A DNA stretch of 64,000 nucleotides, from assembly GCF_028281305.1 (NCBI RefSeq), contig NZ_JANQKD010000023.1, forward strand, positions 139,598 through 203,597, read 5' to 3'. This document shows, piece after piece, positions 18,309 to 62,835 of the stretch. The first letter of the stretch is position 1, and each line of letters opens with the position of its first letter. Under the pieces are notes generated by a model. That model made no database searches, was not told the DNA's origin, and saw nothing but the letters and a program-made list of their open reading frames with translations. Origin of the DNA: Pelagibius sp. GTDB lineage: Bacteria; Pseudomonadota; Alphaproteobacteria; Kiloniellales; Kiloniellaceae. The position numbers and the translations under genes were made by a program.

Positions 18309-19079
18309 GTGCAAGAGTTGGTTGGTCCGACACCCGAATACGCTTCCGCAGCTCCAATCTACGACAGTCGCGTACCCTACCTTCCGGGGTTCTTCGCCGG
18401 ATTGGGGACTCAGATGTTTGAAGGCGAGCCTTTGCGCCTCGCTGATCTAGCCTCTGGACCGGGCGCTCTGGCGCAGGGTTTTTCCCCTTACGTCTCTGCC
18501 TGTTTGCTGGTGGATGCAGAACCGGAGATGCTAGCCGTTGCCCGGAGGGGTAACTACAAGGAGCCCTGTGAGGCGGACTTCCTCTGTGCATCCGTCGAAG
18601 ACCTGCCTTTAGAGGTCGGTGTCTTTGATATTGTGACGATCGGCAGAGCGCTCCACTGGTTGCCACACCAGGCGACGCGCGCCACGTTGCAACAAATCAC
18701 CAAGCCTGGGGGTCATGTGCTGATCTGTGAAGCGGGCACGTTCCGCTATGAGTACAATCCCTGGCACAAAGACTTCAACGCAGTGCGCCAGCGATACACG
18801 AAGGAGGATCCTTTCGTCGGGAGCCAGGGGAACGCGATGTTCTTCAGCGGAAGCAGCTTTCGATGGCGCGGGAACACAACGATCATTGATACGCAGATGG
18901 TCTCGATCGACAAACTGATTGAACGGGCCTTCTCGTACAGTTCGACCGCCCGCGATGTGCTTGGTGATCAAGCCGCTGCCATGGAAGCGGACTTACAGGC
19001 GGCCCTTCGGCCGCACGCTCGCGATGGTCTCGTCCAGGAAGTGATCTATAGCGCCGCGCAAGTGTTTGTCCGCGACTAA
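18309..19079 (+). CDS. Class I SAM-dependent methyltransferase
   Basis: LADLASGPGALA motif I, VDAEPEML, FDIVTIGRALHW, ITKPGGHVLI. Confidence 0.88.
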   Translation: MQELVGPTPEYASAAPIYDSRVPYLPGFFAGLGTQMFEGEPLRLADLASGPGALAQGFSPYVSACLLVDAEPEMLAVARRGNYKEPCEADFLCASVEDLPLEVGVFDIVTIGRALHWLPHQATRATLQQITKPGGHVLICEAGTFRYEYNPWHKDFNAVRQRYTKEDPFVGSQGNAMFFSGSSFRWRGNTTIIDTQMVSIDKLIERAFSYSSTARDVLGDQAAAMEADLQAALRPHARDGLVQEVIYSAAQVFVRD

Positions 19080-20347
19080 CGCGAATCTGTCCAAAGCTCC
19101 TTTTCCGGGCGTACTTCCAAAAGTCCACTTTCCCCGCGGCAGAGCCGGCCGTTGATAGCGGTTCGTGGCAGATGTTGGGTCTTGGTACTGGGCGCCGGCA
19201 GGCTGCCCAGGCGCTGCCCGAGGGGCAGGGCCGTCACAACGGCCTCCAGATCTATCGGGACGTCGGAGATATAGAAGCGCTCCACCACGGCCGGATTGCG
19301 CCACATGCCGGCCAGCGCGATGGCCTTGGCGTCGAGCCCCAGGTCTTGGCGCAGCGTGTTGGCAAAGTTGTGCCTGAACCAATGGGGCGTAGCCTCCTGA
19401 ATCACCATGGCGCGCTCATGATAGCCGAGGGCTTTCATCTGCCGAACGCAGCGTCGCTTGGCGCGGGCAAAGGCATGGCGGATGTGGCCCCCACGGCCTT
19501 CGATGTGGGGATAGGGCCGGCCCCGCTCCGTCAGGAAGGCTTCGGGGTGGATGTCGCGCCGGCGGCGGAACCAGTCCTGCATCATGCCGGCGGCGTAGGG
19601 GTGCAGCGGCCTAAGATAGCAGTGGCCGTTCTTGGTCTTTGGAAAGAAGACGCGTCCGAAATCCCCGCTGAACGTGAAGTGAGTGCGCTTGAGGTGCACG
19701 ACCTGGCCGACGCGGGCGCCGGTGGCGTAGAGGACGGCCAGCATCGGCTTCAGTTGGTCCGCTGCGCAGTCGATGAGGAGCTCCACTTCGCCAGGGTAGA
19801 ACCTTTTCATGGCGGCGCTGCGCTCTTGGTTGCGGACTTGGATCCGTGGCCAATAGGGTGATGCGTAGAGGTAGCCAGCCTTGGCAGCGTAGTTAAGCAC
19901 GGCCGCCATGAGACCCTCTAGACGACGCCTGGTCGTCGGCTGGACGTGGCGGCAACGGCGGATGAAGTAGCCTTCGAGCTCGGTGCGATCGAGATCGGCT
20001 ATGGGCACGCGCCCAAAAGCGGCGATGAACTCTCGGACCATGCGAACGGAAGTGTGTACAGGCTGGCGGACGCGCAGGAATTCTTCCGCGACATCCGCGA
20101 AGGGCGCGTCAGGCAGGCGCTTGTAGACAAAGCGGTCCAGGACCTCCGCCTCCCGCTTGATGCGCAGCACCTCGGCTGCCGCCCAGGCTCCAGGCTGCCT
20201 TGCTTCTAGACCGGTGCTTTCTCTTATGCGGATGGACTTCTTGCCGATGCGGACCGTGCCGCTGAGATAGAGCTTTGTGCTGGAACTGCGCTGGACGACT
20301 CTCAGGCCGCCAGCCTGTGTGGGCGAGGCATATGGGTCTCGGGGCAT
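19076..20347 (-). CDS. int: Tyrosine recombinase/integrase (copy 1)
   Basis: TGAR (R), PKTKNG (K), HWFRH (HxxR), GMW, FY; N-terminal arm-binding-like beta region; about 40-aa non-homologous C-terminal tail. Confidence 0.92.
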   Translation of the reverse strand: MPRDPYASPTQAGGLRVVQRSSSTKLYLSGTVRIGKKSIRIRESTGLEARQPGAWAAAEVLRIKREAEVLDRFVYKRLPDAPFADVAEEFLRVRQPVHTSVRMVREFIAAFGRVPIADLDRTELEGYFIRRCRHVQPTTRRRLEGLMAAVLNYAAKAGYLYASPYWPRIQVRNQERSAAMKRFYPGEVELLIDCAADQLKPMLAVLYATGARVGQVVHLKRTHFTFSGDFGRVFFPKTKNGHCYLRPLHPYAAGMMQDWFRRRRDIHPEAFLTERGRPYPHIEGRGGHIRHAFARAKRRCVRQMKALGYHERAMVIQEATPHWFRHNFANTLRQDLGLDAKAIALAGMWRNPAVVERFYISDVPIDLEAVVTALPLGQRLGSLPAPSTKTQHLPRTAINGRLCRGESGLLEVRPEKELWTDSR

Positions 20348-28007: not shown

Positions 28008-28283
28008 TCATCGGTATGCGCTGCCGCGCGGCTCGATTTCAAATACTTCGACGGTTCCTGTGTCGCGGTCGATGGTCATGGAGACCCGTCGTTCCCCGAC
28101 CCGAAGCCTGAACCCGTTCTTCATACCCTGCAAGGGTTTGAGGTTCGGGTGGTGGCCGAAGGGGTCCTTCGCCACCGCTTCGATGGCCGCCCTGATGGCT
28201 TCCGCCCTATTTCTCGGCATGCGGATCAGACGCTTCGCCGGGGTCTTTTTGTACGTCAAGTCCATGTCGAAATGTTCGCTCAT
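28008..28283 (-). CDS. RelE/HigB family toxin
   Basis: NLKPLQGMKNGFRLRVGERRV...IEPRGSAYR; toxin-first order. Confidence 0.88.
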   Translation of the reverse strand: MSEHFDMDLTYKKTPAKRLIRMPRNRAEAIRAAIEAVAKDPFGHHPNLKPLQGMKNGFRLRVGERRVSMTIDRDTGTVEVFEIEPRGSAYR

Positions 28284-28285
28284 AT

Positions 28286-28327
28286 CGAACTTTTTTGCAA
28301 GAATAAAGTTCGGTCACGGCGAACTTT
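28286..28327. promoter_or_regulatory. Putative TA autoregulatory operator
   Basis: Palindrome AAAGTTCG-N7-CGAACTTT (28305-28327) plus an extra CGAACTTT half site at 28286, just upstream of the toxin. Confidence 0.5.
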
Positions 28328-28346
28328 TGCGGCTCGAGGAGTTCAC

Positions 28347-29333
28347 GTGACCCGGCGCGGCAGCCAGCAGTTCACCGACTTCTTTGTCCGCGAAGTGCGG
28401 GAGCGCACCCGGATCGTCCACCTGATCGGGCGGGACGTACCGCTGACGCGGCGGGGCGGGCGGCACTGGGGGCTTTGCCCCTTCCACCAGGAGAAGACGG
28501 CGTCCTTCACGGTCAGCGAAGAGCGCGGCTCCTACAAGTGCTACGGCTGCGGCGCGCGGGGTGACGCCATCGACTGGCTGAAGGACCACCACGGCTTGGC
28601 CTTTCGCGAGGCGGTCGCCGAGCTTGCGGTGCAGGCGGGCCTGATCGCCGACCGAGAGGGGCGGACGCTGCCGCGCAAGCCGCCGGTACCGCGCAAGAGC
28701 GAGGAGGAAGCCTCCCAGGACCGGGCGCGGTCCATCGCCTGGGCACGCAGCCGCTTCGCCGAAAGCCGACCCGCCGCCGGGACCTGGGTCGAGCGCTACC
28801 TGCGGCGGCGCGGGATCACCATTCCTATCCCGCCGACCATCCGCTTCCATCCCGGGCTGAAGCACAAGGGTACGGGGCTGATCTTTCCTGCCATGGTCGC
28901 AGCGGTCCAGGACGGCCAGGGCCGCATCACCGGCATCCACCGGACCTTCCTGCAGCCCGGCGGTCTCGACAAGGCCAATGTCTGCGACCCCAAACAGATG
29001 GCCGGTGCCTGCTGGGGCGGCTGCGTGCGCCTCGGCCCGGTAGAGCGCGAGTTGCCGATGGGCGAGGGGATCGAAACCTCTCTTTCCGTTCAGCAGGCCA
29101 TTAAGCGCAGCTGCTGGGCGGCGCTTTCGGTCGGCGGCATGGGCGCAGCCGTCCTGCCGCGGAAGGTCGAGGGCGTCATCCTCTGCGGCGAGCGGGACGT
29201 GAAGGATCAGGCTGCCTACGACGCACAGATCGAGGGCGCGGCCCGCTGGCACCACGACCACGGTCGCTGGGTGCGCATCGCTTGGCCCGGCGAGGGCCAG
29301 GACTTCAACGACATGCACCGGGAGCAGGCCTGA
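28347..29333 (+). CDS. DNA primase (CHC2 zinc finger + Toprim)
   Basis: GLCPFHQEKTASF, CYGCGARGDAIDW, GIHRTFL, GEGIETSLS, DFNDM; GTG behind GAGGAG. Confidence 0.88.
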   Translation: MTRRGSQQFTDFFVREVRERTRIVHLIGRDVPLTRRGGRHWGLCPFHQEKTASFTVSEERGSYKCYGCGARGDAIDWLKDHHGLAFREAVAELAVQAGLIADREGRTLPRKPPVPRKSEEEASQDRARSIAWARSRFAESRPAAGTWVERYLRRRGITIPIPPTIRFHPGLKHKGTGLIFPAMVAAVQDGQGRITGIHRTFLQPGGLDKANVCDPKQMAGACWGGCVRLGPVERELPMGEGIETSLSVQQAIKRSCWAALSVGGMGAAVLPRKVEGVILCGERDVKDQAAYDAQIEGAARWHHDHGRWVRIAWPGEGQDFNDMHREQA

Positions 29334-29923
29334 TGCAGAAGCTGCTCCGACTCGTCGTCATCTCGGTCTGCCTGAGCTTCTCCACGGCGGCTTCCGCCTG
29401 GACCTGCATGGAGGACCCGGAGAATTTCAAACTCGACCACTGCCGCGCGCCCAGAGCCTTCCGGCGTGCGGTCCGGCGGCGGCCCGAACTCTCGATGCGC
29501 AGGCACAAGGCCGCGCAGGTGGAGATGGGCCGGCTCGACGAGGCCAGGGCCGTCAACAGGCGCGTCAACCGTTCGATGATCTACACGCCCGAGGCGGTCG
29601 ACGACTGGCTTTCTGGCAGCGACTGCGACGACTATGCGCGGCAGAAGCTGCTCGATCTTCTCGACCGGGACTTCCCGCGCGGGGCGCTGCGGCTGGCCAT
29701 GGGGCGCACGCCCGAAGGCGTCTACCACCTCGTCCTTCTGGTGGATGCCGCCGACGGCCAAACCCTGGTCCTCGACAACCGCAACGACCACGCCCTGCCG
29801 ATTGAACACAGCAACGTGACGTTCCTGCTCTGGCAGAGCCCCGGGACCGATCTGTGGCAACGCGCCGAGGCCAAGCCGCTCGACTTCGGCGGCGTCTGGG
29901 CAGCCAGCACGGGGACGCGGTGA
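29333..29923 (+). CDS. Secreted transglutaminase-like cysteine protease (BTLCP/LapG-like, C93), copy 1
   Basis: Signal peptide ending ASA-W; VNRRVN, SDCDDYA (Cys), ALRLA, HLVLLV (His), VLDN (Asp). Confidence 0.82.
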   Translation: MQKLLRLVVISVCLSFSTAASAWTCMEDPENFKLDHCRAPRAFRRAVRRRPELSMRRHKAAQVEMGRLDEARAVNRRVNRSMIYTPEAVDDWLSGSDCDDYARQKLLDLLDRDFPRGALRLAMGRTPEGVYHLVLLVDAADGQTLVLDNRNDHALPIEHSNVTFLLWQSPGTDLWQRAEAKPLDFGGVWAASTGTR

Positions 29924-30318: not shown

Positions 30319-30563
30319 ACCCCCGGGTGAAGCGTGCGCGGATCCCGGCGGCGGCCCTGGCGGCCCAGTCCTCCTCGGGCCGCTGCAATTCCCGGCGGGT
30401 CGATCCGCTGCCAACGCCAGGCGCGTACCGCTATTGCGACGACCGCGCGAGCGTGAAGACGCGACACTGTCTCTCCTGCCGCGAGCCCTTCCGTTCCGTG
30501 AATGCCGGCAACCGGATCTGCAGCGGTTGCATCGCCCGGGTGAGCAAGCAGGTCGAGGGCTGA
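30315..30563 (+). CDS. Small Zn-finger protein
   Basis: RHCLSCREPFRSVNAGNRICSGC. Confidence 0.65.
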   Translation: MNPRVKRARIPAAALAAQSSSGRCNSRRVDPLPTPGAYRYCDDRASVKTRHCLSCREPFRSVNAGNRICSGCIARVSKQVEG

Positions 30564-30565
30564 CG

Positions 30566-31963
30566 ATGGCGGTCAGGCTTCTCGTCGGCGATGCCCTGGA
30601 GCACCTTCGAACGCTGGCGGATGAAAGCGTCGACAGCTGCATTTGCTCGCCGCCCTACTGGGGCCTCCGCGATTACGGCGTCGAGGGACAGATGGGCCTG
30701 GAGGCGAGCCTTGGCGAACACCTGGAGGCCATGGTGGGGGTCTTCGCTGAGGTCCACCGGGTCCTCAAGCCGGGGGGCGTGCTGTGGCTGAACTACGGCG
30801 ACTGCTATGCGGCCGAGCCCAACGGACGCTCCGCAGCGGAGACCAAGGCCAAGGGGGGCGACGACCGCACGTTCCGCGACAAGCCGATGAAGACCACGGG
30901 GCCGATACATCCGCCGGTTGCCGGCAAGCCCTTCGAGACACCGAAGGGCGCAGGCCGCCGGGGCGGCGGCAAGAATGCTGCGGGGCCGGTCTTCGATGCC
31001 GACTACCGCCAGCGCACGACCGGGGGGTTGCATCTGGCTCGGCGGGAGGACGTCAAGGGGCGGGTGGTGGCCGGGGGATACCTTAAGCCCGGGGACCTCT
31101 GCATGGTCCCGAACCGGCTGGCCATTGCCCTGCAGGAATGGGGGTGGTGGGTCAAGGCGGAGTGCGTCTGGGCCAAGCCTAACGCCATGCCGGATTCTTC
31201 CGGGGTCAGCCGTCCGGCGACGGCACACGAGAAAATCTTCATGCTGACCAAGTCGGACCGGGTGAACCTTTGGCGGGCACGGGATACGGGCGAGATCTCC
31301 TACGATCCGGATCACAGCGAGATGGCGGTGATGAAGTCGACCAAGGATCAACGGCTCGGCAAGCGCTGGATCGCTATGCGCCATCACTACGATGCCGAGG
31401 CGGTGCGGGTCCCGGCAGACCCGGAGAGCCTGGCACGCTACGAGCGGGGCCGCTCCGACGACCACAAGTGGGCCGACGGCGGCCCGGGCGGACAGACCAT
31501 CGCGCGAAGTTTTCGCGGCATGCGGCAACCGAAAGACAAGCAACGGGGTCACGCGCGAGAGCATGCGGGCTTCAAGGAGCGCTGGGACCAGATGACCCGC
31601 GAGGAGCAGCAGGCCAACGGTCGCCTGCTGCGCAATTACGAGCCCGCCCCGCCCGTGGTCTGGGAGATGCCGACGGCGTCCTTCGCCGAGGCGCACTATG
31701 CGACCTTCCCGCCTGAGCTTGTGGAGCGCTGCATCCGGGCGGGCTGCCCGATGGGCGGGACGGTGCTGGACCCCTTCGGAGGGGCGGGCACAACAGGTTT
31801 GGTGGCGGAGGCCATGGGACGGAACGCGATCCTGATCGAACTGCATCCGGATTATGCCCGCATGGCCCGGCGGCGTATCCGGACCGGCCTGGGGCGGGTC
31901 GAGGCAGACCTGCCTGATGACGGACCCGAGGGGCTGCCCCTCTTCGGCGGGGCGTCGCGGTGA
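30566..31963 (+). CDS. Orphan DNA methyltransferase (N4-C/N6-A, beta class)
   Basis: SPPYWGLRDY motif IV precedes VLDPFGGAGTT motif I; HYATFPPELVERCI; no restriction endonuclease nearby. Confidence 0.92.
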   Translation: MAVRLLVGDALEHLRTLADESVDSCICSPPYWGLRDYGVEGQMGLEASLGEHLEAMVGVFAEVHRVLKPGGVLWLNYGDCYAAEPNGRSAAETKAKGGDDRTFRDKPMKTTGPIHPPVAGKPFETPKGAGRRGGGKNAAGPVFDADYRQRTTGGLHLARREDVKGRVVAGGYLKPGDLCMVPNRLAIALQEWGWWVKAECVWAKPNAMPDSSGVSRPATAHEKIFMLTKSDRVNLWRARDTGEISYDPDHSEMAVMKSTKDQRLGKRWIAMRHHYDAEAVRVPADPESLARYERGRSDDHKWADGGPGGQTIARSFRGMRQPKDKQRGHAREHAGFKERWDQMTREEQQANGRLLRNYEPAPPVVWEMPTASFAEAHYATFPPELVERCIRAGCPMGGTVLDPFGGAGTTGLVAEAMGRNAILIELHPDYARMARRRIRTGLGRVEADLPDDGPEGLPLFGGASR

Positions 31964-51525: not shown

Positions 51526-53762
51526 TGCCGCCCGCCGCAGCTGTGGTGGCCGGTGCCGTCCTTGCCGGGGTCGGGTCCTTTGCGGCGGGCGCAACGATCT
51601 TCGGGCTTTCCGCCGGCCTGACGGCGGTGATCATCGGTGCCACAAACCTTGTCCTTGGCTTGGGTGCATCGTTCCTTGCAGAGAAGCCGAGTGTCGACCT
51701 CCCGAACCTGAGCAGCTTTACCGCGAGGGCGCAGAACCGGACCCAGACGCTGCGGCAGCCGATCACACCCAGGCGGCTGGTCTACGGCGAAGCCCGGGTT
51801 GCGGGGCCTATGATCTTCGCGGAGTCGACTGGGAACAACCGCTTCCTGCATCTGGTTGTGGCTCTTGGCCAAGGACCCTTCGAGGCCATCGACGAGGTCT
51901 GGCTGAATGCAGACCCGATCTTTTCCGACGACCTCGACAGCGACGGTCTGGTCACGGCGGGCAAGTACAAGAACAAGGTCCGCATCAAGAAGTACCTTGG
52001 GGAAGCCGATCAGGTTGCGGATCCGGATCTGGTCGACGAGGTCGCATCCTGGACGGCGGCACACCGCCTGCGCGGCATGGCCTACATCTACCTGCGACTG
52101 GAGTTCGACAGAGATCTTTTTCCGACCTCGATCCCGAACCCCTCTGCCTGGGTAAAGGGCAGGAAGGTGGCTGATGTTCGGCAGGGCGGGTCGCCTGTGG
52201 TGTGGACGCCAAATGCGGTGCTTTGCACCCGCGACTACATGCTGGATCAAACGCTGGGTCTTGGGGCCGGGCCCGACGAGTTCGACGACGATCAGGCGGC
52301 GGCCGGTGCGAACGTCTGCGACGAGTTCGTGACCGTGCTGGATGCGGACTTCACAGCGTCCGCTGTGTCCGAGGCGGACGATGCTATCGACCTGGACCTA
52401 CCACGGCTGTCGCTGCAGACGGGCGACGTTGTCCAGGTCTCCAGCACGGATGCTTTGCCGGCGGGACTGCAGGCCGGGATCAACTACTTCGCCATCCCGG
52501 TGCGCCGCCGGCAGACCGATCACAAGGACCCGAGGATCCGGCTGGCGGCTTCCTATGCCGATGCGCTGACCGGCACAGCGGTGGATCTGACGGATGCCGG
52601 TAGCGGCACCCTGACCGTGACCAAGAAGGGCGAACCGCGCTACGCCCTGTCGGGTGTGGTGGAAACCGACCGTCCACCCTCGTCGATCATCGAAGAGATG
52701 CTGACGGCGATGGGCGCGCGCGCCGTCTATGGCTCCGGGCAGTGGCGGGTACTCCCGGCGGCCTGGGCGTTGCCCTCGCTGTCCCTGGACGAGAACGATC
52801 TGCGAGGGCCGATCGAGGTCCAGACCAAGATCACGGGCCGGGACCGGTTCAACGCGGTCAAGGGGATCTTCGTTTCGCCGGAGCGCGACGGGCAGCCGGA
52901 CGACTATCCGCCCGCTGTCAATGCGCTCTACCAGGCGGCGGACGGTGGGCGGCGGAAGTTTCGGGAACTCAGTCTCCCCTTCACGACGCGCGCCAACCAG
53001 GCGCAGCGGCTGGCGAAGATCGCTCTGGAGCGTCACCGGCAGGAGATCAGCGTTACCGCCCGCTGGTCCTTGCGTTGCCTGCAGGTTCAGGCGGGGGACA
53101 GGGTGGAGTTGACCAACCAGACCTACGGCTGGGACCGCAAAGTCTTCGAGGTCGAAGCCTGGGCACTGATCTTCGAAGAGAGCGACAGCGACGCCCCGGC
53201 GCTTCTGGTCGAAATGGGGCTGCGGGAAACTGCGGCGGGCATCTTCGAGTTTGATTCCGGTTTGGAAGAAACGCGGGTGGATCTGGCGCCCGATACCAAC
53301 CTGCCGAACCCCTTCGACGTGGCGCAGCCGACCGGCATCGGCGTCTTTACCCAGATCACGCTGACGGCCGCAGGCGACATCGTCCGCAACATCCTGGTCA
53401 CCTGGATGCTGGCGGATGACTTCTACGTCGTCAACGGCGGTCACTACCAACTGCGGTTCAAGAAGTCGAGCGCGACCTTCTGGCAGCAGTCATGGACCAT
53501 CGACGGGGCCGACAACTCGGCACAGACGCCGCCGGTCAATCTGGACGAAAGCTACGACCTTGAGATCCGGTCGGTGAACCATCTGGGCATCACATCGCCC
53601 TATGCACGGGTCTTCGGCTACGTGGTCGGCTCCAGCGGGGCCGGCGTGACGTCGAAGGTGGATGAGGGTCTGGTGTCGGAGTCCGTGACCAACTTCGTGG
53701 ACGAGGGTCTGGTGTCGCAGGCGGTCACGGTGACGAACGACGAGGGAGCGATCGGCAGTTGA
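51525..53762 (+). CDS. Central tail fibre / host specificity protein (J-like)
   Basis: PRRLVYGEARVAGP, HRLRGMAYIYLR, NAVLCTRDYM, RFNAVKG, AQRLAKIALER, FN3-like C-terminus. Confidence 0.88.
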   Translation: MPPAAAVVAGAVLAGVGSFAAGATIFGLSAGLTAVIIGATNLVLGLGASFLAEKPSVDLPNLSSFTARAQNRTQTLRQPITPRRLVYGEARVAGPMIFAESTGNNRFLHLVVALGQGPFEAIDEVWLNADPIFSDDLDSDGLVTAGKYKNKVRIKKYLGEADQVADPDLVDEVASWTAAHRLRGMAYIYLRLEFDRDLFPTSIPNPSAWVKGRKVADVRQGGSPVVWTPNAVLCTRDYMLDQTLGLGAGPDEFDDDQAAAGANVCDEFVTVLDADFTASAVSEADDAIDLDLPRLSLQTGDVVQVSSTDALPAGLQAGINYFAIPVRRRQTDHKDPRIRLAASYADALTGTAVDLTDAGSGTLTVTKKGEPRYALSGVVETDRPPSSIIEEMLTAMGARAVYGSGQWRVLPAAWALPSLSLDENDLRGPIEVQTKITGRDRFNAVKGIFVSPERDGQPDDYPPAVNALYQAADGGRRKFRELSLPFTTRANQAQRLAKIALERHRQEISVTARWSLRCLQVQAGDRVELTNQTYGWDRKVFEVEAWALIFEESDSDAPALLVEMGLRETAAGIFEFDSGLEETRVDLAPDTNLPNPFDVAQPTGIGVFTQITLTAAGDIVRNILVTWMLADDFYVVNGGHYQLRFKKSSATFWQQSWTIDGADNSAQTPPVNLDESYDLEIRSVNHLGITSPYARVFGYVVGSSGAGVTSKVDEGLVSESVTNFVDEGLVSQAVTVTNDEGAIGS

Positions 53763-54439
53763 GCGAACAACGGCAAAAGCGGCGCGATGTCTGGGCGGTG
53801 GTCTCTAACTCGACGCCGACAGAAGGCGAGTTCTGGTACATCACCGACACACACAGCTGGGTCTTCGGTGACGGCTCGACGGTGGGCGGGATTCCGTTCG
53901 GGCCGGGAACCGGTGATTTCAAGAGCACAGCCAAGGCGACCGTCGATCCGGGCTGGCTGCTGGCGGATGGCCGGACCATCGGTTCGCCGACATCGGGCGC
54001 AAACCTGACCGGAGATCAATATCGCGCGCTCTTTACCTGCCTGTGGAACGATTGGTCCGAGACTACAGCGCCCGTGACTCCTGGCGGTCGTGGGGTCTCC
54101 GCTGATCAGGATTGGGCAGACAACAAGGCGATCAGGATCCCGAACCGCCGGGGGTACGCGGAGGTCGGGGCAGATGCGTCGCCGCCGCTGACGGCGCGGG
54201 CCGTCGGCGCGATCTGGGGTGAGGAAGAGGTCACCATTGAGCGCACCCATCTGCCCGCCGAAGGGCTGGACCTGACCCTGCCCCGCAAGTTCGGGAGCAA
54301 CGAAGGCAGCGGCGTTGGCTTCTCCAAGGACAACGGCACCACCAGCGACGGCACGGGCACAACCGAGAACATGGGCGACGGCACCACCCTCCCGATCCAG
54401 CCGCCGTCCATGGCGGCCTATATCTGGATCAAGCTTTGA
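53759..54439 (+). CDS. Tail fibre with Mtd_N-like N-terminus and tail collar domain
   Basis: RRD...TPTEGEFWYITDTHSWVFGDGSTVGG (Mtd N-terminal pattern); GWLLADGRTIG...YRALF...RIPNRRG collar; GEEEVTI...HLP. Confidence 0.78.
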   Translation: MSEQRQKRRDVWAVVSNSTPTEGEFWYITDTHSWVFGDGSTVGGIPFGPGTGDFKSTAKATVDPGWLLADGRTIGSPTSGANLTGDQYRALFTCLWNDWSETTAPVTPGGRGVSADQDWADNKAIRIPNRRGYAEVGADASPPLTARAVGAIWGEEEVTIERTHLPAEGLDLTLPRKFGSNEGSGVGFSKDNGTTSDGTGTTENMGDGTTLPIQPPSMAAYIWIKL

Positions 54440-54472
54440 CGGCGATCCACCGCCGTCGACCGGGTGACACGG

Positions 54473-54495
54473 GCCGCCTCCGGGGCGGCTTTTTT
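54473..54495 (+). terminator. Intrinsic terminator after the tail genes
   Basis: GCCGCC-TCCGG-GGCGGC followed by TTTTTT. Confidence 0.75.
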
Positions 54496-54527: not shown

Positions 54528-54791
54528 ATGGAGTGGGGCATAGACGGCGGCGACATCCTGCAGGTCGCCGCCTTTCTTGTGGCGGCTGTGATTTTCGTTC
54601 TGCGGATCGATAAGCAGCTGGGGATCATGAAGGCGGAGATGAAGGCCTTGGAAGGCCGGGTGAACACACTGGAGGAAGGTCTTCGTGATGACGTGCGCGA
54701 GATCAAGGACACGATCAACGCAAACGCCCGCGACAGCAAAGACAATTTCAAGGCGGTCTTCGAACGCCTCGACCACAAGGCCGACAAGTGA
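54528..54791 (+). CDS. Holin-like 1-TM coiled-coil protein
   Basis: N-terminal TM and heptad repeats; immediately upstream of the endolysin. Confidence 0.55.
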   Translation: MEWGIDGGDILQVAAFLVAAVIFVLRIDKQLGIMKAEMKALEGRVNTLEEGLRDDVREIKDTINANARDSKDNFKAVFERLDHKADK

Positions 54792-54825: not shown

Positions 54826-55251
54826 ATGATCACGATCACACAGCAAGACGTTGATGTCCTGGCGCGCACGGTCTACGGCGAGGCGCGCGGGGAGCAGATG
54901 CAGGGCAAGCTCGCCGTTGCCTACGTCATCATGAACCGTGTCCGCGCGGATCTCCACGGCGACGAAAAGCCGGATTGGTGGGGCGAGGGGATTGTCGGTG
55001 TCTGCCTGCGTGATCGCCAGTTCTCCTGCTGGAACCACAACGACCCGAACCGCACGAAACTGATGACGGTCGGACCTGACGACAAGGCTTTCGCCGAGTG
55101 CATCGGTGCGGCGTTGATGGCGATCCACCGGTTGCAGCCGGATCCGACCGATGGAGCCGACCATTACTTGGCTTCGCACGCCTGGGCGGATTGGGCTAAG
55201 GGCAGGCCTTTCGTCTCCATCGGCCGTCATCGCTTCTTCCACCTGAACTGA
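54826..55251 (+). CDS. Endolysin, cell wall hydrolase (SleB/Hydrolase_2)
   Basis: LARTVYGEARGE (catalytic Glu), AVAYVIMNRV, QFSCWN..DPN, GADHY. Confidence 0.92.
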   Translation: MITITQQDVDVLARTVYGEARGEQMQGKLAVAYVIMNRVRADLHGDEKPDWWGEGIVGVCLRDRQFSCWNHNDPNRTKLMTVGPDDKAFAECIGAALMAIHRLQPDPTDGADHYLASHAWADWAKGRPFVSIGRHRFFHLN

Positions 55252-55868
55252 TGCCGGCACAGAGAGGCCGCCACCTGCGGCCGAGCGTGCGGACGGTCGC
55301 GACGCCGTCCGAGGCCAAGCGGCTCTATAAGCATCCACGCTGGCGGCGGCTGGATCTCGACCGTGCGCGGCGGTCGCAGCTGATCGGCTCGTGCGAGGAT
55401 CTGCGGGTCGTCGACGAGTGGTTCGCATGGCTGCAGGAACGCTGGCGTCACCGCGACGAGGGCCAGAACATCTGGGCCAACATGATCCGCCGCTGGCGCA
55501 AGGTCGCCGGGCAGTGGGTCCTCCTTTGGTTCGGCGACTGCGAGGACTGGTGCCTGCTGCTGATCCTGCATCTGGTCACGCGCGCCGGCTTCCCTCGCGG
55601 GGCGCTGCGGCTCTGCGCCTGTGAGATCCCGCGCCCGGGCAGAAAGCCGGAGGGCCACATGGTCGTGGCCGTCGCAACCGACCGCGGGACCCTGGTCTGC
55701 GATCCGCTGCAGGACCGTCCGCGATGGGCCGACGATCCGGTTTTCGCGGGCCATGACTGGCATTCGATCGAGGACCCGCCGGAGATCCCTGGCCCGGGCC
55801 GGGGTGTCTGGCGGTCCCTGCGCGTCGTCACCCTGGAGGACGCGCTGCGTTTTCATCCGCAAAGCTGA
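55251..55868 (+). CDS. Transglutaminase-like cysteine protease (BTLCP/C93-like), copy 2
   Basis: GDCEDW (Cys), FPRGALRL, GHMVVAV (His), LVCD (Asp); no signal peptide seen; coupled to the endolysin stop. Confidence 0.78.
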   Translation: MPAQRGRHLRPSVRTVATPSEAKRLYKHPRWRRLDLDRARRSQLIGSCEDLRVVDEWFAWLQERWRHRDEGQNIWANMIRRWRKVAGQWVLLWFGDCEDWCLLLILHLVTRAGFPRGALRLCACEIPRPGRKPEGHMVVAVATDRGTLVCDPLQDRPRWADDPVFAGHDWHSIEDPPEIPGPGRGVWRSLRVVTLEDALRFHPQS

Positions 55869-55879
55869 AAGGAAAGACG

Positions 55880-56803
55880 ATGGATGAGTTTTTGACACCG
55901 GAACTGATCGGGGGCCTGACCGGCGGCCTGATCGTAGCAATTGGCTTGTTCATCTTCCGAGGTGTGGCCTGGATCAAAGACTTTGTCACAGGGACACCGA
56001 CGAAGCTTGACGACAAGGTCTACAACAAGGTGGTCGAGGCATTTCGGGAGGCAGGCGAGATCTCGCTGCCCGAGAGCATCGACCAAGGGAAGGGTGTGAG
56101 AATCGACAATCTGGTGCTGGCCAAGCGCGATTCCGGAAACAAGGACTCCAGCCCACGCTCGCCGGCAATGGTCGCGGCGGCAGCACTGCTGATGGCTTTG
56201 ACCCTGACCGCGTGCGATCCGTTCAAAGCCTTCATTCCGAGCGGCTCGGTGATCCAGAGCGGCGAGGCGGCCGAAGACGAAAGCGCCCAAAAGCGGCTGG
56301 CGGACCAGATCTTCGGTGCGGTCTCAGGCCAGGAGGGGCGAACGGCACGCCTGACGCTGGTCATGGCGACCTACAGCGAACTGGCCGCCGACCGCGTGAC
56401 CCGCTTCGATCAGGACCAGGCGCCCACGGTGCTGGGCCGCTTCGCGGAGTTGCGGGGCATGCTGGCCCGCTTCCAGACCACGCCGGACGCTGTGTTCGTC
56501 GAGACCAACCTCCGCTACGCGAGCTTGGCGATAGCCTCGATTGTCATCGATACGGGCCTGGACCGGGCCGGAGCGCTCGCGGGCAACGTGATCGGAGGCC
56601 TGAGTGTCAGCGGCCTGGGCGACCGGGCCAAGGTCGTGGCCCGTCAAGCGGCCCTGACAGAGGCGCTCCTCGCCGACGTGCGGGCGGCGACGGCCAGGAT
56701 GCGCGACGATCCATCCTCGATTGCCGGCATCCAGCAGGCCGCCCTGGCCCGCTTCACGGCCAACGAGAACCGCATCAAAGCGATCCTGGGCCTGATCGCC
56801 TAG
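55880..56803 (+). CDS. N-terminal TM/holin-like module joined to an internal-lipobox helical domain (spanin-like?)
   Basis: TM at residues 9-27, TPTKLDDK motif, internal MVAAAALLMALTLTAC lipobox at about residues 97-112. Confidence 0.55.
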   Translation: MDEFLTPELIGGLTGGLIVAIGLFIFRGVAWIKDFVTGTPTKLDDKVYNKVVEAFREAGEISLPESIDQGKGVRIDNLVLAKRDSGNKDSSPRSPAMVAAAALLMALTLTACDPFKAFIPSGSVIQSGEAAEDESAQKRLADQIFGAVSGQEGRTARLTLVMATYSELAADRVTRFDQDQAPTVLGRFAELRGMLARFQTTPDAVFVETNLRYASLAIASIVIDTGLDRAGALAGNVIGGLSVSGLGDRAKVVARQAALTEALLADVRAATARMRDDPSSIAGIQQAALARFTANENRIKAILGLIA

Positions 56804-57350: not shown

Positions 57351-57848
57351 CTAATTGGCCTTGCGGATTCTGATCGCCTCTTCGACTGCATTGCTGAGAT
57401 GCTTGGAGATCCAGTCGTAGCGTTCTTTGCTGGTGGAGCCTCCTGGGGTGTAGCACTTCACGATCGCAGACAGCTTCTTTCCTGTGTTTCCATACCCAAT
57501 GAAGTCGAATGGGTTCTTACCCACCGATGCAGTGTCCCCAGCCAAGTCGGTCAATCCGTGGATCCGGATGCCCACGACGCCCATGTTGCTGTCCCACGAT
57601 CGGATAATTTCGTGATTGATCCACTTCCGGTTAGCCGTATTGGCCCCGACCAAAACGACCGTGCAGCTTCGACCTGACATCTGCCTGCCGATCCAGTTCC
57701 GGATCGCTTGGTCTCCACCTTTGGTGACGCTCTCCCAATCGTTGTCAGAGACAGGTGCATTGCCTTCAATAACACCGATGTTTCGAACCTTTGCCGCCCG
57801 GGTGCTGTCAGGTTTGTAGTGGAAACTGTAGAAGCACTTCCTCTTCAT
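57351..57848 (-). CDS. ThsB-like TIR domain protein (DUF1863)
   Basis: CFYSFHY..D, DNDWE.V, IRNWI..QM.GRSCTVVLVG..TA.RKWI.HEI with the catalytic Glu retained, VVGIRIHGL, GKNPF. Confidence 0.9.
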   Translation of the reverse strand: MKRKCFYSFHYKPDSTRAAKVRNIGVIEGNAPVSDNDWESVTKGGDQAIRNWIGRQMSGRSCTVVLVGANTANRKWINHEIIRSWDSNMGVVGIRIHGLTDLAGDTASVGKNPFDFIGYGNTGKKLSAIVKCYTPGGSTSKERYDWISKHLSNAVEEAIRIRKAN

Positions 57849-57859
57849 TCACCAACCCC

Positions 57860-58261
57860 CTAAAGCAGCGCAAGCATTACAACGACAACAGCGAAGAGCA
57901 GTCCGCCGTGAAATGCGACAAGTGTTGCAGAGAAGATGACACGGGCTAGGGCGGGGACCTCTCGATCGACTGACTTTGTGCTCATCGAAAAGTCGATTGC
58001 GTCATCTTCCATCTTCCGCACCCTGTCGTATAGCGCTCGAAACATCTTCTCTTGCCGCAAGAAGTATCCATCGAGACCCCAGAATACTATTACGGGAATA
58101 TAAGCCAAGAATATAAAACTTCGGTTTGAATTCTCTGCCGCTAGTGCGGAGAGTGCCGCGACCAACACCACGCTCCATCCCTTAAGCAAGAAGGAGCTCT
58201 GTGCAAGGCGATTGATTACACCTTGGACAAACTCCATGTGCTTGATTTTACGATGTTCCAT
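57860..58261 (-). CDS. Small multi-TM membrane protein (putative TIR-associated effector)
   Basis: KHMEFVQGVINRLAQSSFLLKGWSV, FWGLDGYFLRQEKMFRALYD; three hydrophobic segments; 11 nt upstream of the TIR gene. Confidence 0.8.
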   Translation of the reverse strand: MEHRKIKHMEFVQGVINRLAQSSFLLKGWSVVLVAALSALAAENSNRSFIFLAYIPVIVFWGLDGYFLRQEKMFRALYDRVRKMEDDAIDFSMSTKSVDREVPALARVIFSATLVAFHGGLLFAVVVVMLALL

Positions 58262-58357
58262 CGCGCCCTCCCACTTGACACGGCAGTGTAGCAGTCCAGT
58301 CAGATCCCAGAAAACTAGCCTCTTGTACATGGTTTGTTCTGGTGCGAAGATATCTCA

Positions 58358-58591: not shown

Positions 58592-58970
58592 CGGTCTTGC
58601 AGGCCTGGCGCTCATCTTTGGCATCGAGGCGCAGCTTTGCCATTTGTCCAGATGTCAGTTGCGGCGGCGGTATACCCGGCTTTCAGTGCTATCTCACTAA
58701 TGCTGAAAGAGAGCCGCTTTTTTTCGACCTGATTGTCCAGTTGGCGGTGGCTAACAGTGCGAACCTGAAGCGCTGTGGCTACTGTGGCCTCGTATACGAG
58801 CGAGCGATCCCTGACCGACTGCTTGGCCATCTACTTGACGGTGTCGAGGGCAGAGTATGGCGACCATTGAAGCTGCGCTACTAACCGTCTTACCCGATGC
58901 GGGTACGGTCCAAGTCTTGGCTGTTCGTGTGGAATGAACTCGACGCCAATGCGGAACCTAGCGAAAACAG

Positions 58971-58992
58971 ACTGTGTCAGCTATGTGCCAGC
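58971..58992 (+). repeat. 22-bp direct repeat, right copy (candidate attR or arm site)
   Basis: ACTGTGTCAGCTATGTGCCAGC; matches 16779-16800 with one mismatch. Confidence 0.7.
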
Positions 58993-59039
58993 GTTCCTTC
59001 GCCGTTCTGCACTTTTCTGCGCGGACCTGCACTTTGGGC

Positions 59040-59068
59040 TTGCGCGACCCCTCGGCAAGACGCTAGGA
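59040..59068 (+). promoter_or_regulatory. Putative sigma70 promoter of tRNA-Ser
   Basis: TTGCGC-N17-CTAGGA about 20 nt upstream of the tRNA. Confidence 0.5.
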
Positions 59069-59089
59069 AAACTGCGCTTTTCCCGGCGA

Positions 59090-59182
59090 GGACAGGTGGC
59101 CGAGTGGCTGAAGGCGCTCCCCTGCTAAGGGAGTATGTGGTTAAGAGCTGCATCGAGGGTTCGAATCCCTCCCTGTCCGCCA
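59090..59182 (+). tRNA. tRNA-Ser(GCT)
   Basis: GGACAGG/CCTGTCC acceptor stem, TGGCCGAGTGG D arm, CTCCC-CTGCTAA-GGGAG anticodon arm, long variable arm, GGTTCGAATCC, encoded CCA. Confidence 0.97.
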
Positions 59183-59715: not shown

Positions 59716-61320
59716 ATGCTGCAGGGCCTGAGAAGCAGGGTAGATGCAAAGCTCAGCGCGTTTTTCGTGCCGCGGGAGCTGATTCTCCGTGCCCATGACC
59801 GCGTCACAGTCCTGCGGCTCTCGGTTCGCACCCAACAAGCCGGCTTGTGTGCCGTCTTTCTTTTTCTCGTTTGGACGCTCGCGGCGAGTGGCGGTTTCGT
59901 TCTGCAGGAATACACCATCGCAGGCAAGGACGACGAAATCGAACAACAGAAGTTCGATTACTTTTCTCTCCTCAGCGAAGTGGCAGAGTACCACCAGCAG
60001 TTCGCGCGCATTGCCGGCTCTCTTGAGGACAACCAGGCTTACCTGCTCTCAGCGCTGCGGGACGGTGTGCAGGGCGAGGAAGCGCTTGCCCGCATCGAGG
60101 AGAACCTCAGAAAGACCGAGTCCGAAGAGACCAGAGTTGTGGCGGCCCGGGCCGGACTGGGATCCAAGGCTGAACGTTTCGGTTCCGAACTCGAGGCCAT
60201 TCTGGAGCGCGACCAAGCTCTTCGTGCGCGGGTTCAGTCCATGCGCTCCATTCTGGTGGAAGACAGTCCAGACGGCGGACAGGCGGCCGAGGCAGACCGC
60301 AGGCTGGGTCAGCGACTGCAGGATCTTGAAAGCGAACTGACGCAGTCCGATACGGCGAGACGCCAGCTTGAAGCCACGGTCGCGGACCTCCGTTCGCAGG
60401 TAATGACAGCGCAGCAGGAGCGGGAAGCAGCGGAAACGACTGGGGAACAGTTCCGAGACGAGATCCGGATCCTGGAATCTCAATTGACGCTCGCAGCCAA
60501 CCGCGAAGACGGACTGGATCGACAGATCTCAGCGCTGGAGCAGTCGCTGGAGACGGCCATTCATCGGGGCGACGGCTTGGCAGACGACAAATCCGGTCTG
60601 CAGGGTGAGCTTGTGGACGCCCGTCAAAGGATGTCGGATCTGCGCGCTGCACAACACAGCATTGTGGAACGGCTGCGCGACCGCACGGAGCTCGGCGTCG
60701 ACAGCATCGAACGTACGGTTGCAATGACTGGCCTGAAAGTTGAAGACTTGTTGGCACGGGTGGAGGGCAGCGGAGCCTCTCAGGGCGGTCCTTTCATCGC
60801 CGGTGACTATTCCGGCGATTTCAATGGCGATGCAGAGCTCGAGATTGCCCTCTCGCTTCTAGATCTACGTCTAAATCGTTGGAATGCTTTACAGAAGATA
60901 ATGCGTACACTGCCGCTGACGGTTCCGCTGGACAGCTATTCCATCAGCAGCGGCTACGGCAAGCGCAAAGATCCGCTGAATGGACGCATGGCGTACCATC
61001 GCGGATTGGATTTCCGGGCGCGCACGAAGGCGCCCATCTACTCGACAGCACCAGGAACGGTCACCTATGCCGGCTGGAGTGGGCCCTTCGGTCGCATGAT
61101 CGAGATCGATCACGGCCACGGCATTCGAACGCGGTACGCCCACCTTAAAAAGATTCTTGTCAAATCAGGACAGTCGGTAGCTAATCGCGAGAAGATCGGT
61201 CTTGTCGGCTCTTCCGGCCGCAGCACCGGTCCACACTTGCACTACGAAGTGCGCTATAACGGCGCTCCGCTCAACCCCATGAAGTTCTTGACGGCAGGCA
61301 AGCATGTTTTCAAAGACTAA
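59716..61320 (+). CDS. M23 family peptidase with N-terminal TM and coiled coil
   Basis: HRGLDF (HxxxD), IDHGHGIRTRYAHL, STGPHLHYEV. Confidence 0.93.
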   Translation: MLQGLRSRVDAKLSAFFVPRELILRAHDRVTVLRLSVRTQQAGLCAVFLFLVWTLAASGGFVLQEYTIAGKDDEIEQQKFDYFSLLSEVAEYHQQFARIAGSLEDNQAYLLSALRDGVQGEEALARIEENLRKTESEETRVVAARAGLGSKAERFGSELEAILERDQALRARVQSMRSILVEDSPDGGQAAEADRRLGQRLQDLESELTQSDTARRQLEATVADLRSQVMTAQQEREAAETTGEQFRDEIRILESQLTLAANREDGLDRQISALEQSLETAIHRGDGLADDKSGLQGELVDARQRMSDLRAAQHSIVERLRDRTELGVDSIERTVAMTGLKVEDLLARVEGSGASQGGPFIAGDYSGDFNGDAELEIALSLLDLRLNRWNALQKIMRTLPLTVPLDSYSISSGYGKRKDPLNGRMAYHRGLDFRARTKAPIYSTAPGTVTYAGWSGPFGRMIEIDHGHGIRTRYAHLKKILVKSGQSVANREKIGLVGSSGRSTGPHLHYEVRYNGAPLNPMKFLTAGKHVFKD

Positions 61321-61798
61321 AGAGACCAGTGGTAGCCCCGAACCCGTAACGCCCACCAGCACGGAGCCTAAGCGAAGCCCCGCAAACAGTGGTGTGCCTT
61401 CGATCATCAGCGCCGATCTGAAGATAACCGGCAACCTGAGAAGCGATGGCGATATCCAGGTTGATGGCTTTGTCGAGGGCGACATCGACAGCGCAACCCT
61501 CACCGTCGGAGAGGGGGCTCAGGTCAAAGGCCACATCAGCTGCGATGCCGTGCGGATCTGCGGAACCATCGATGGTGCCGTGAAGGCGAAGTCTGTCGTT
61601 ATGGCGAAGTCGGCCCGTGTGATCGGCGACATCATCCATGACAGCCTGGCCATTGAGGCGGGTGCCTTCATCGAGGGCAACATCAAGCGGCTGGAAGGTG
61701 CGAGCCGGTCCTCCGGGGGTACCAGCAACGTCACGCCGGCGCCGACAGCGTCGAGCAGCAGCGGCGGCTCCCAGACCAGCAAGCCCCTCGCGAGCTAA
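61304..61798 (+). CDS. Bactofilin (polymer-forming cytoskeletal protein)
   Basis: PSIISADLKITGNL.SDGDIQVDG.VEGDI...LTVGEGAQVKG beta-helix repeats; overlaps the M23 gene. Confidence 0.94.
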   Translation: MFSKTKETSGSPEPVTPTSTEPKRSPANSGVPSIISADLKITGNLRSDGDIQVDGFVEGDIDSATLTVGEGAQVKGHISCDAVRICGTIDGAVKAKSVVMAKSARVIGDIIHDSLAIEAGAFIEGNIKRLEGASRSSGGTSNVTPAPTASSSSGGSQTSKPLAS

Positions 61799-62835
61799 GG
61801 GCCGCAGTCGCCCTGTTCTTCGCAGTCGCCCTGTTCTTCTAGGACAGAGCGAAAGAGATCGGGATCAACGTTTCCGCCGGACAGGGTCAAAGCGACTGTC
61901 CGGCCGGCGCAGTCGATCTTGCCTGCAAGGACCGCGGCCAAGCAGACGGCCCCGCCTGGCTCCACGACCAGCTTGAGGACGCGGAAGGCGAAAGCCATCG
62001 CGGCCTTCACTTCCCGGTCGGTCACGGCTAATCCGCCCCTGACACGGCCCTCGTTGGCGGCAAAGGTGAGCGTGCCCGGTTGCGGCGCCAGGAGGGCATC
62101 GCAGATTGATCCCTGCATGCTCTGGTTAGGCAGGATCTCTCCTGCTTCGAGGGAACGCCGGGTGTCATCGTAGTGGGCCGGTTCGACGGTCATCACTTCA
62201 GCATCGGGCAGCAAGCGCTCGAAAGCGATTGCGCAACCGGCCGTCAGTCCCCCTCCACCGCAGCAAACCAACAGTGTGTCCGGTCTCGCGCCCAAGGTCT
62301 CCGCCTGGCGGACGATTTCCAGACCGCAGGTTCCTTGGCCGGCGATGATGCCGCCGTCGTCGTAAGGCCGTACAAGCGTGGCGCCTCGTTCCTCACAGAG
62401 GCGGCCGCCGATCTCTTCGCGGGAGTCCGTCAGGCGGTCATAAAGGCCGACTTCGGCCCCATAACCCTTTGTGTTCTCAATCTTGATCGTCGGGGCATCT
62501 CTCGGCATCACGATCACAGCCGGAAGCCCAAGTATGGCGGCGGCGGCGGCGACGCCCTGTGCGTGGTTTCCAGAGGAAAAAGCCACAACACCATTCTTGT
62601 GGAGGGCTTCCGGAATCTGGGCAATCCGATTAAAGGCGCCCCGGAATTTGAAAGACCCGGTTCGCTGAAGCGATTCAGCCTTGAGCAAAACCCTGCCGCC
62701 GGCAAGTTCGTTCAGGGCGGCGGACTCCAACAACGGCGTCACGGTCGCCCAGCCGCACAAGCGCTCGGCCGCGCGCAGAATGTCATCAAAGGCAGGGACG
62801 TCATCAAATCGCGTCGAAGTCGTTGTATCAGGCAA
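61795..62835 (-). CDS. Threonine/serine dehydratase (PLP)
   Basis: ESLQRTGSFKFRGA, SSGNHAQG, GQGT, CGGGGL, EPGGA, LSGGN. Confidence 0.93.
   Translation of the reverse strand: MPDTTTSTRFDDVPAFDDILRAAERLCGWATVTPLLESAALNELAGGRVLLKAESLQRTGSFKFRGAFNRIAQIPEALHKNGVVAFSSGNHAQGVAAAAAILGLPAVIVMPRDAPTIKIENTKGYGAEVGLYDRLTDSREEIGGRLCEERGATLVRPYDDGGIIAGQGTCGLEIVRQAETLGARPDTLLVCCGGGGLTAGCAIAFERLLPDAEVMTVEPAHYDDTRRSLEAGEILPNQSMQGSICDALLAPQPGTLTFAANEGRVRGGLAVTDREVKAAMAFAFRVLKLVVEPGGAVCLAAVLAGKIDCAGRTVALTLSGGNVDPDLFRSVLEEQGDCEEQGDCGP

Follow-up and report, generated by a model that had tools for sequence, protein, structure and literature searches.

A LapG-type (BTLCP/Peptidase_C93) cysteine peptidase predicted from the lysis cassette of a Pelagibius prophage

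The C93 gene and its predicted product

The stretch of DNA analysed here (the window, 64 kb, from Pelagibius sp.) consists for the most part of a lambda-like prophage of high-GC alphaproteobacterial character, and the present text concerns one gene of its lysis cassette, the open reading frame (ORF) at 55251..55868 (+), referred to below as the C93 gene. The cassette comprises four co-oriented genes and lies 3′ of the tail-fibre gene and of a terminator-like hairpin, at the end of the tail module. A first-pass annotation, made from the sequence alone, had placed this ORF inside a lysis cassette, coupled to a SleB-type endolysin gene by overlap of its start with the endolysin stop, and in front of a gene for a transmembrane protein/lipoprotein, and this arrangement was confirmed in each part. 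The gene directly upstream (54826..55251, +) encodes a SleB-type (Hydrolase_2) endolysin of 141 amino acids without signal peptide, identified by matches to PF07486 (E 1.9e-14, across positions 1-100 of the 100 in the model), TIGR02869 SleB (1.3e-13) and the endolysin family phrog_938 (1.3e-17). Its TGA stop codon (55249-55251) and the ATG start codon of the C93 gene (55251-55253) share one base (cTGATGc), and from this stop/start overlap the two genes are predicted to be translationally coupled. The C93 product has 205 amino acids and an isoelectric point of 9.7; the G+C content at third codon positions is 0.85 in its gene and 0.78-0.82 in the neighbours. The gene that follows (55880..56803, +) encodes a membrane helix and a lipobox, as described below.

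All the residues on which the earlier assignment to a Cys-His-Asp protease had been based were located in the translation of 55251..55868, namely GDCED at residues 95-99 (C97, codon 55539-55541), FPRGALRL at residues 114-121, GHMVVAV at residues 135-141 (H136, codon 55656-55658) and VCD at residues 149-151 (D151, codon 55701-55703). Membership of the BTLCP/LapG family was likewise upheld, by Pfam, by profile comparison and by structure prediction. The Pfam profile PF06035 (BTLCP/Peptidase_C93) was matched with an E value of 1.4e-6 and 28.6 bits against a gathering cut-off of 27, the match being limited to the catalytic core (profile positions 74-131 of 162). When a profile built from 28 relatives was compared with PDB sequences, the LapG chains 4FGO and 4U65_E were matched with E values of 4e-9 and 1e-8, and the resulting alignment paired W75 (a conserved tryptophan of the N-terminal lobe), GDCED, H136 and D151. 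AlphaFold modelling with a two-sequence alignment gave a predicted local distance difference test score (pLDDT) of 36, and the alignment of 28 relatives was needed for a confident model (pLDDT 92.6; predicted template-modelling score 0.88). In a Foldseek comparison of this model with PDB, the six best matches were all LapG (probability 1.0; template-modelling score (TM) 0.43-0.51), in agreement with the transglutaminase-like fold anticipated earlier; other transglutaminase-like cysteine proteases followed, and then, weakly, the phage pseudomurein endoisopeptidase PeiP (E 0.03-0.06; rank 13). Pfam, profile and model agree on a predicted protein of the BTLCP/Peptidase_C93 family, and with a G+C content like that of its neighbours and a homologue on another phage contig the ORF is taken as a real gene. 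Searches against Pfam, NCBIfam, PHROG and PDB sequences gave no match to CHAP, NlpC/P60, C71 or amidases.

C97 and H136 were invariant among the 28 divergent relatives, and position 151 was occupied by Asp or, in one clade, replaced by Asn one residue later. Asn at the third triad position agrees with the finding that the D241N variant of HvyA, an alphaproteobacterial BTLCP, is functional (PMC4241560). The residues on both sides of the nucleophile form a calcium-type motif, D96-C97-E98 (55536-55544); in DvhG the calcium ligands D316 and E318 flank the nucleophile C317 (PMC13090378), and the corresponding D96 and E98 constitute a predicted calcium site. One clade of the subfamily (GNCN...CCN) has lost the D-C-E motif. 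On these residues and the predicted fold, the ORF would encode a LapG/BTLCP-fold cysteine peptidase that is catalytically competent and has come to serve in phage lysis.

The closest relatives of the protein in structure and sequence are LapG (Pseudomonas fluorescens Pfl01_0130; Legionella pneumophila, PDB 4FGO/4FGP/4FGQ and 4U65) and DvhG, with which it shares the two-lobed transglutaminase-like fold, the Cys-His-Asp triad, the D-C-E motif and the N-lobe tryptophan (W75). It differs from LapG in showing only 13-18% identity over the structural alignment at the above TM values, in having no signal peptide and in being encoded in a phage lysis cassette. The Lap system further includes a LapD/DvhD receptor (the LapD type being a receptor of cyclic di-GMP), a type 1 secretion system and a giant adhesin; because none of these adjoins the C93 gene of the window, its product is not regarded as a LapG orthologue. 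HvyA (Caulobacter CCNA_00166), a capsulation blocker, is an alphaproteobacterial BTLCP with the same C/H/D triad, whose third position accepts Asn as well (PMC4241560), a feature also of part of the phage subfamily, but it is Sec-exported, cell-cycle regulated and encoded in a capsule locus. LapG, DvhG and HvyA are all exported and act as periplasmic proteins in living cells (PMC4359373, PMC4241560).

A subfamily without signal peptides and its gene neighbourhoods

The N-terminus of the C93 protein (MPAQRGRHLRPSVRTVATPSEAKR...) is basic and has neither a hydrophobic stretch nor a signal peptide. A signal-like N-terminal segment was likewise missing in 82 of 125 family matches, and in a rough neighbour-joining tree the members without signal peptides stood apart from the signal-peptide BTLCPs. 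The Pfam scores separate the two groups as well, the lysis-cassette subfamily scoring about 28-31 bits against 90-177 for signal-peptide or multidomain members. A signal-anchor-release segment was also considered: residues 35-47 of one relative (P0002) are hydrophobic, but no such segment is present in the window protein, and the idea was dropped.

Relatives were scarce. A word-indexed homologue search returned one at first and four later, and an exhaustive hidden Markov model search of 1.84 billion representatives returned 123, only 6 of them with E below 1e-10. A homologue with 62% identity was found on another phage contig; scans of viral contigs for close relatives found none, nor did the first of two scans of GTDB species genomes. 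A tblastn comparison with 50,697 cultured phages recovered Rhizobium phages of two kinds only (RHph_I4 and L338C). Their BTLCP genes are full-length and lie away from lysis genes, and they are uninformative for the lysis-cassette subfamily, from which the BTLCPs of cultured phages differ in matching the full Pfam model (110-133 bits) and in being located among early genes or genes of unknown function. The subfamily includes members in a gammaproteobacterial (Halopseudomonas) prophage, L027, and on a contig of 36% G+C. By these sequence comparisons, the C93 protein is assigned to a rare and divergent BTLCP subfamily without signal peptides. The subfamily has no matching PHROG family and no PADLOC match. 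The statement of the first-pass annotation that the gene is not a standard lysis component is borne out by this lack of a PHROG family and by the literature searched, in which no paper connecting transglutaminase-like or BTLCP proteins with holins and endolysins was found.

The genomic context was recovered at 15 loci in all (the window and 14 others), about 13 of these 15 being independent; the sources were metagenomes, IMG/VR, GTDB genomes and look-ups of exact proteins, and the neighbouring genes were read directly and with Pfam. The linkage of the C93 gene to lysis genes, for which a synteny survey had been suggested, is conserved across these loci, two of which carry a fusion of C93 and SleB. 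Wherever enough flanking sequence was available, the C93 gene was found at the end of the tail module amid small membrane proteins and lipoproteins, and the wall hydrolases beside or fused to it were of SleB type at four loci (two adjacent, two fused), M15 or GH108. In the window and at L006 the SleB gene immediately precedes the C93 gene and overlaps it; the order at L006 is SleB, C93 and lipoprotein, and the C93 protein of this locus has only 26% identity to that of the window. At L053 and L055 (a Pelagibius sp. prophage) the two are joined in fusion proteins, P0026 and P0126, with an N-terminal C93 and a C-terminal Hydrolase_2/SleB domain. The order is thus SleB then C93 in the window and L006, and C93 then SleB in the fusions; more than one origin of the pairing is therefore probable. 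The C93 gene was found in 0 of 21 other SleB-type viral loci in IMG/VR, which marks it as an occasional partner of SleB rather than a part of the SleB module.

Other loci show other partners. L007 has the order membrane protein, M15_3 peptidase and C93, and L009 and L027 (the latter in a Halopseudomonas aestusnigri prophage) have C93, GH108 with PG_binding_3, and lipoprotein. L001 carries Phage_holin_3_3, C93 and a Phage_holin_10-lipoprotein ORF, and in its 20 kb of precomputed annotation no other lysin domain was present apart from a tail NlpC/P60. L003 carries Phage_holin_3_3 followed by C93. L010 and L011 have a membrane coiled-coil protein, C93, and then a membrane protein and lipoproteins, and at L057 (a Pelagibius litoralis prophage) and L060 a C93 protein standing alone, 63% identical to the N-terminal domain of the fusions, is followed by a two-helix membrane protein and a lipoprotein. 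At L004 the C93 gene is the last of its operon, with no lipoprotein gene after it. No recognised wall-hydrolase domain was found beside C93 at L001, L004, L010, L011, L022, L057 and L060, all of which are partial contigs or prophages. A 171-aa gene after C93 at L003 was considered as an SLT-like transglycosylase, which was not confirmed (Phage_lysozyme2 E 0.097; no PDB sequence match up to E 0.1); the gene falls in phrog_3108, a family of unassigned function.

Neighbouring genes of the cassette and the prophage

The start of the lysis cassette is marked by the terminator-like hairpin at 54471..54491 (+), detected by a consensus scan as a 9-bp stem followed by a T run. The first gene after it (54528..54791, +) encodes an 87-aa protein that, by its translation, has an N-terminal membrane helix and a coiled-coil tail and gave weak family matches only; this architecture suggests a lysis membrane protein of the holin or i-spanin type. 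At L007, L010, L011 and L060, proteins built in this way (89-108 aa) are encoded near the C93 gene, mostly upstream; a comparison of the 87-aa protein with the 108-aa membrane protein of L010 gave no significant similarity, and homology between them was not detectable.

The ORF that follows the C93 gene (55880..56803, +; 307 aa) consists of a single-helix N-terminal membrane part (about residues 1-95) joined in frame to a helical lipoprotein of 211 aa, with an internal ATG at 56168 and an internal lipobox, LTLTAC, of which the Cys codon lies at 56213-56215. The membrane-helix part shares 41% identity with an 84-aa ORF that stands by itself at L010, and the lipoprotein part is homologous to lipoproteins encoded just 3′ of C93 at L022 (E 6e-14) and L010 (E 4e-6); no Pfam or PHROG family was matched by the latter part. 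The same in-frame layout, a Phage_holin_10 N-terminus followed by a lipoprotein of about 200 aa, occurs at L001 (10630-11289), and at L010 the membrane and lipoprotein parts are two separate genes. With about 200 aa the lipoprotein is too long for a typical o-spanin. At L022 a Lipase_3 gene (7965-8699; PF01764, E 3e-14) comes after the C93 and lipoprotein genes. An ORF resembling it, as read directly from the sequence, lies 3′ of C93 at L008 (1058-1438). The lipase genes of L022 and L008 are possibly further envelope-directed lysis accessories.

Additional genes recur around the lysis region of the related phages. Immediately 5′ of the lysis genes at L003 (7194-7508), L011 (6006-6437), L053 (3986-4225), L056 (5433-5744) and L060 (184-498) lies a gene for a small, conserved secreted protein with the motif ...G[SN]WTI.VT.P.G..C.V..G.GW...; this protein is absent from the window and has no family assignment. 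Nuclease genes lie near the C93 gene or lysis region, mostly at the prophage end, at L010 (2606-3103), L025 (6592-6993), L053 (8963-9526) and L055 (9097-9561), those of L053 and L055 being an SNase and an Endonuclease_NS by Pfam and those of L010 and L025 being SNase-like by eye only. At L027 a second papain-like gene (8689-9267) follows C93, GH108 and the lipoprotein, with a match to Peptidase_C92/YiiX at E 0.0018, below the cut-off.

The remainder of the prophage includes an integrase gene (19076..20347, -), a structural set composed of a gpA-type large terminase, a lambda-family portal, an S49 prohead protease, a capsid-E-like protein and tail genes, and the tail-fibre gene that precedes the lysis cassette (53759..54439). 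A tRNA-Ser(GCT) gene is located at 59090..59182. The right flank of the window (58966-59182 and 60520-61945) is 76-93% identical to the Pelagibius sp. chromosome at locus L055, the matching part being the tRNA-Ser region and the chromosomal genes downstream of it (M23 peptidase/DUF5930 and bactofilin); L055 has at the same site a different prophage, the one bearing the C93-SleB fusion. On this match the host of the window is placed as a Pelagibius-like member of the Rhodospirillales. Between the lysis cassette and the tRNA-Ser gene of the window lies a pair of lower-GC genes (57351-58330, -) that encode a ThsB-like TIR protein (PADLOC ThsB 2.3e-64, with a match to PDC-M50B too) and a 156-aa membrane protein (PDC-M50A 7.6e-50), a candidate prophage-borne anti-phage defence pair by these matches.

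A second BTLCP gene is present in the same prophage at 29333..29923 (+). Its product of 196 aa has a classical signal peptide (MQKLLRLVVISVCLSFSTAASA) and matches PF06035 with 54.6 bits. The stop of the primase gene (28149..29333) and the start of this second BTLCP gene overlap, and an N6/N4 DNA methylase gene (30434..31963) lies downstream. The prophage therefore carries one BTLCP of the early region that is predicted to be exported and one of the lysis cassette that is predicted to be cytoplasmic.

Possible role of the C93 protein in lysis

The C93 protein is probably an undescribed kind of phage lysis enzyme. About an even chance is given to the more specific reading that it is released by the holin, is maybe gated by calcium, and cuts peptide bonds of the wall layer, most likely in the peptides of peptidoglycan. 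On this reading the enzyme would accumulate in the cytoplasm like a canonical endolysin and would reach the wall only when the holin opens the inner membrane, and the low calcium concentration of the cytoplasm may hold it silent until then through the D-C-E site. Once in the periplasm, it would act on the murein layer by cutting peptide or isopeptide bonds, most likely those of stem or cross-link peptides, so that its action would complement glycan-strand cleavage by the SleB-type enzyme, as CHAP or NlpC/P60 domains do with muramidases; in relatives without a second enzyme, it would serve as the sole endolysin.

Peptidoglycan is favoured as the substrate because seven cassettes contain no other recognisable lysin, because the C93 domain is fused to a glycan-cleaving domain and two-domain endolysins typically pair a glycosidase with a peptidase, because the subfamily is not confined to alphaproteobacteria, and because there is a precedent in PeiW/PeiP (PMC2989375). 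As described in the reports on them (PMC2989375, PMC4592898), PeiW and PeiP (MEROPS C71) of methanogen phages are lysins with a transglutaminase-type C-H-D triad that are activated by Ca/Mg, have an isoelectric point of about 9.4 and cut the cross-link peptide of the wall. They differ from C93 in their pseudomurein-binding repeats, their archaeal hosts and their family, and the similarity of fold is weak. CHAP and NlpC/P60, papain-superfamily peptidases or amidases that stand beside or are fused to a glycan-cleaving domain (PMC10318531), follow the same logic as C93 with SleB, but they belong to another papain-like branch and have no detectable sequence similarity to C93.

Several observations weigh against a wall peptidase. 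The characterised BTLCPs (LapG, DvhG and HvyA) all act on proteins or protein-linked processes and not on peptidoglycan, and the bond cut by LapG is the L-Ala-L-Ala bond within a [T/A/P]AAG motif (PMC13090378), a site that in the Lap system belongs to the retention module of the adhesin. The C93 protein has no sequence-level likeness to the CHAP, NlpC/P60 or C71 lysins, its fold resembles PeiP only weakly, and a cell-wall-binding domain was not found in it. The phage has a complete endolysin already and would not require a second, and since C93 was found in none of the 21 other SleB-type viral loci, SleB-type lysis can do without it. Where C93 stands alone, the sequence is a partial contig or a prophage of uncertain viability, and an unrecognised lysin, such as the phrog_3108 member of L003, could adjoin. 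The gating by calcium, finally, is suggested by two residues only, which are lost in the GNCN...CCN clade.

Phage lysis also includes enzymes that act on the connection between the wall and an outer layer. LysB of mycobacteriophages, an accessory enzyme whose gene neighbours that of the endolysin, assists lysis by severing the link between outer layer and wall and so detaches the mycomembrane; its activity is that of an esterase on mycolyl-arabinogalactan, and its fold is unrelated to that of C93. In diderm bacteria the outer membrane is tethered to peptidoglycan by alphaproteobacterial beta-barrel proteins via N-terminal Ala-Asp, or by Lpp or OprI elsewhere. An enzyme analogous to LysB in function, acting after holin and endolysin, could sever such protein links or surface adhesins and thereby ease rupture of the outer membrane or the escape of progeny, much as the first-pass annotation had suggested for the C93 protein, and this proposal is considered clearly less probable than cleavage of peptidoglycan. 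The known BTLCPs are protein-specific periplasmic proteases (PMC13090378, PMC3032545), and the host is a Pelagibius-like alphaproteobacterium, a class in which covalent links between outer-membrane proteins and peptidoglycan are present in Brucella and Agrobacterium (PMC10787603). The C93 gene often stands beside a full endolysin of varied type (SleB, M15 or GH108), and the conserved lipoprotein of about 200 aa that follows it, together with the lipase gene of L022 and L008, suggests an envelope-directed accessory set. No canonical endolysin is found beside C93 at seven loci, however, and it is doubtful on established models of lysis that tether cleavage would bring a benefit, since degradation of murein frees the outer membrane from its tethers anyway. 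The occurrence of the subfamily in the Halopseudomonas prophage L027 and on low-GC contigs indicates that an alphaproteobacteria-specific substrate could not be general, and no candidate substrate was identified. A broader form of the proposal, given the same low probability, is that the subfamily represents a fourth lysis function of Gram-negative phages, a calcium-gated, holin-released cutter of protein links between outer membrane and peptidoglycan, or of other envelope proteins, and not of murein. If this were true, it would be the diderm counterpart of LysB, and its partners would be the lipoprotein of about 200 aa encoded after it and the lipase present in some of the phages.

Alternatively, the C93 protein might process or regulate the lysis machinery itself by cutting the 55880..56803 product, a spanin, or a holin or antiholin, so as to time or activate lysis. 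The union of a holin-like segment and a lipoprotein in one frame (in the window and L001) invites proteolytic separation, the pairing of C93 with a lipoprotein recurs, and enzymes of the LapG type recognise specific protein motifs. The lipoprotein could, however, already be separated by signal peptidase II or by use of the internal ATG at 56168; L010 encodes the two parts as separate genes, the C93 gene of L004 has no lipoprotein gene after it, and a regulator would hardly be expected in fusion with the catalytic domain of SleB, so that this role is considered improbable.

Slightly less probable still is a role in remodelling of the host surface, as an auxiliary or lysogenic-conversion gene acting on capsule or adhesins in the manner of HvyA or LapG and placed in the cassette incidentally. 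Such a role would be in line with the rank of BTLCP as the commonest 'auxiliary metabolic gene' in river single-virus genomes, read there as a modifier of the host surface (PMC11283719), with the control of capsulation and phage sensitivity in Caulobacter by HvyA (PMC4241560), with the second, signal-peptide BTLCP in the early region of the same prophage, and with the location of the BTLCP genes of Rhizobium phages RHph_I4 and L338C away from lysis genes; but a protein without export signal could not reach periplasmic targets in a living lysogen, a position in the lysis cassette at 15 loci and fusion to SleB are not incidental, and the signal-peptide copy at 29333..29923 is the better candidate for work at the surface.

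Lysis of Gram-negative hosts by phages is taught as the work of holin, endolysin and spanin, and to our knowledge the catalytic domains of endolysins are regarded as an almost complete list. BTLCP genes in phages are already known; the viral 'auxiliary metabolic genes' of this kind (PMC11283719; Rhizobium phages) belong to the same Pfam family as C93, and the lysis-cassette subfamily was not singled out in the river single-virus paper (PMC11283719). What is new is a subfamily without signal peptides that is embedded in, and sometimes fused into, the lysis apparatus, and the C93 subfamily can thus be read in two ways, as an established protein family with a role not described before or as an additional catalytic domain of an established functional class. 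Should its substrate be murein peptides, it would be a new enzymatically active endolysin domain, possibly gated by calcium, and would be of interest for the engineering of enzybiotics against Gram-negative bacteria; if it cuts envelope proteins instead, a new step of lysis would be defined. The prophage of the window, with one BTLCP copy of each kind, offers a clean natural comparison, and among the viral BTLCPs that are now scored as auxiliary metabolic genes, at least the C93 subfamily would have to be counted as a lysis gene.

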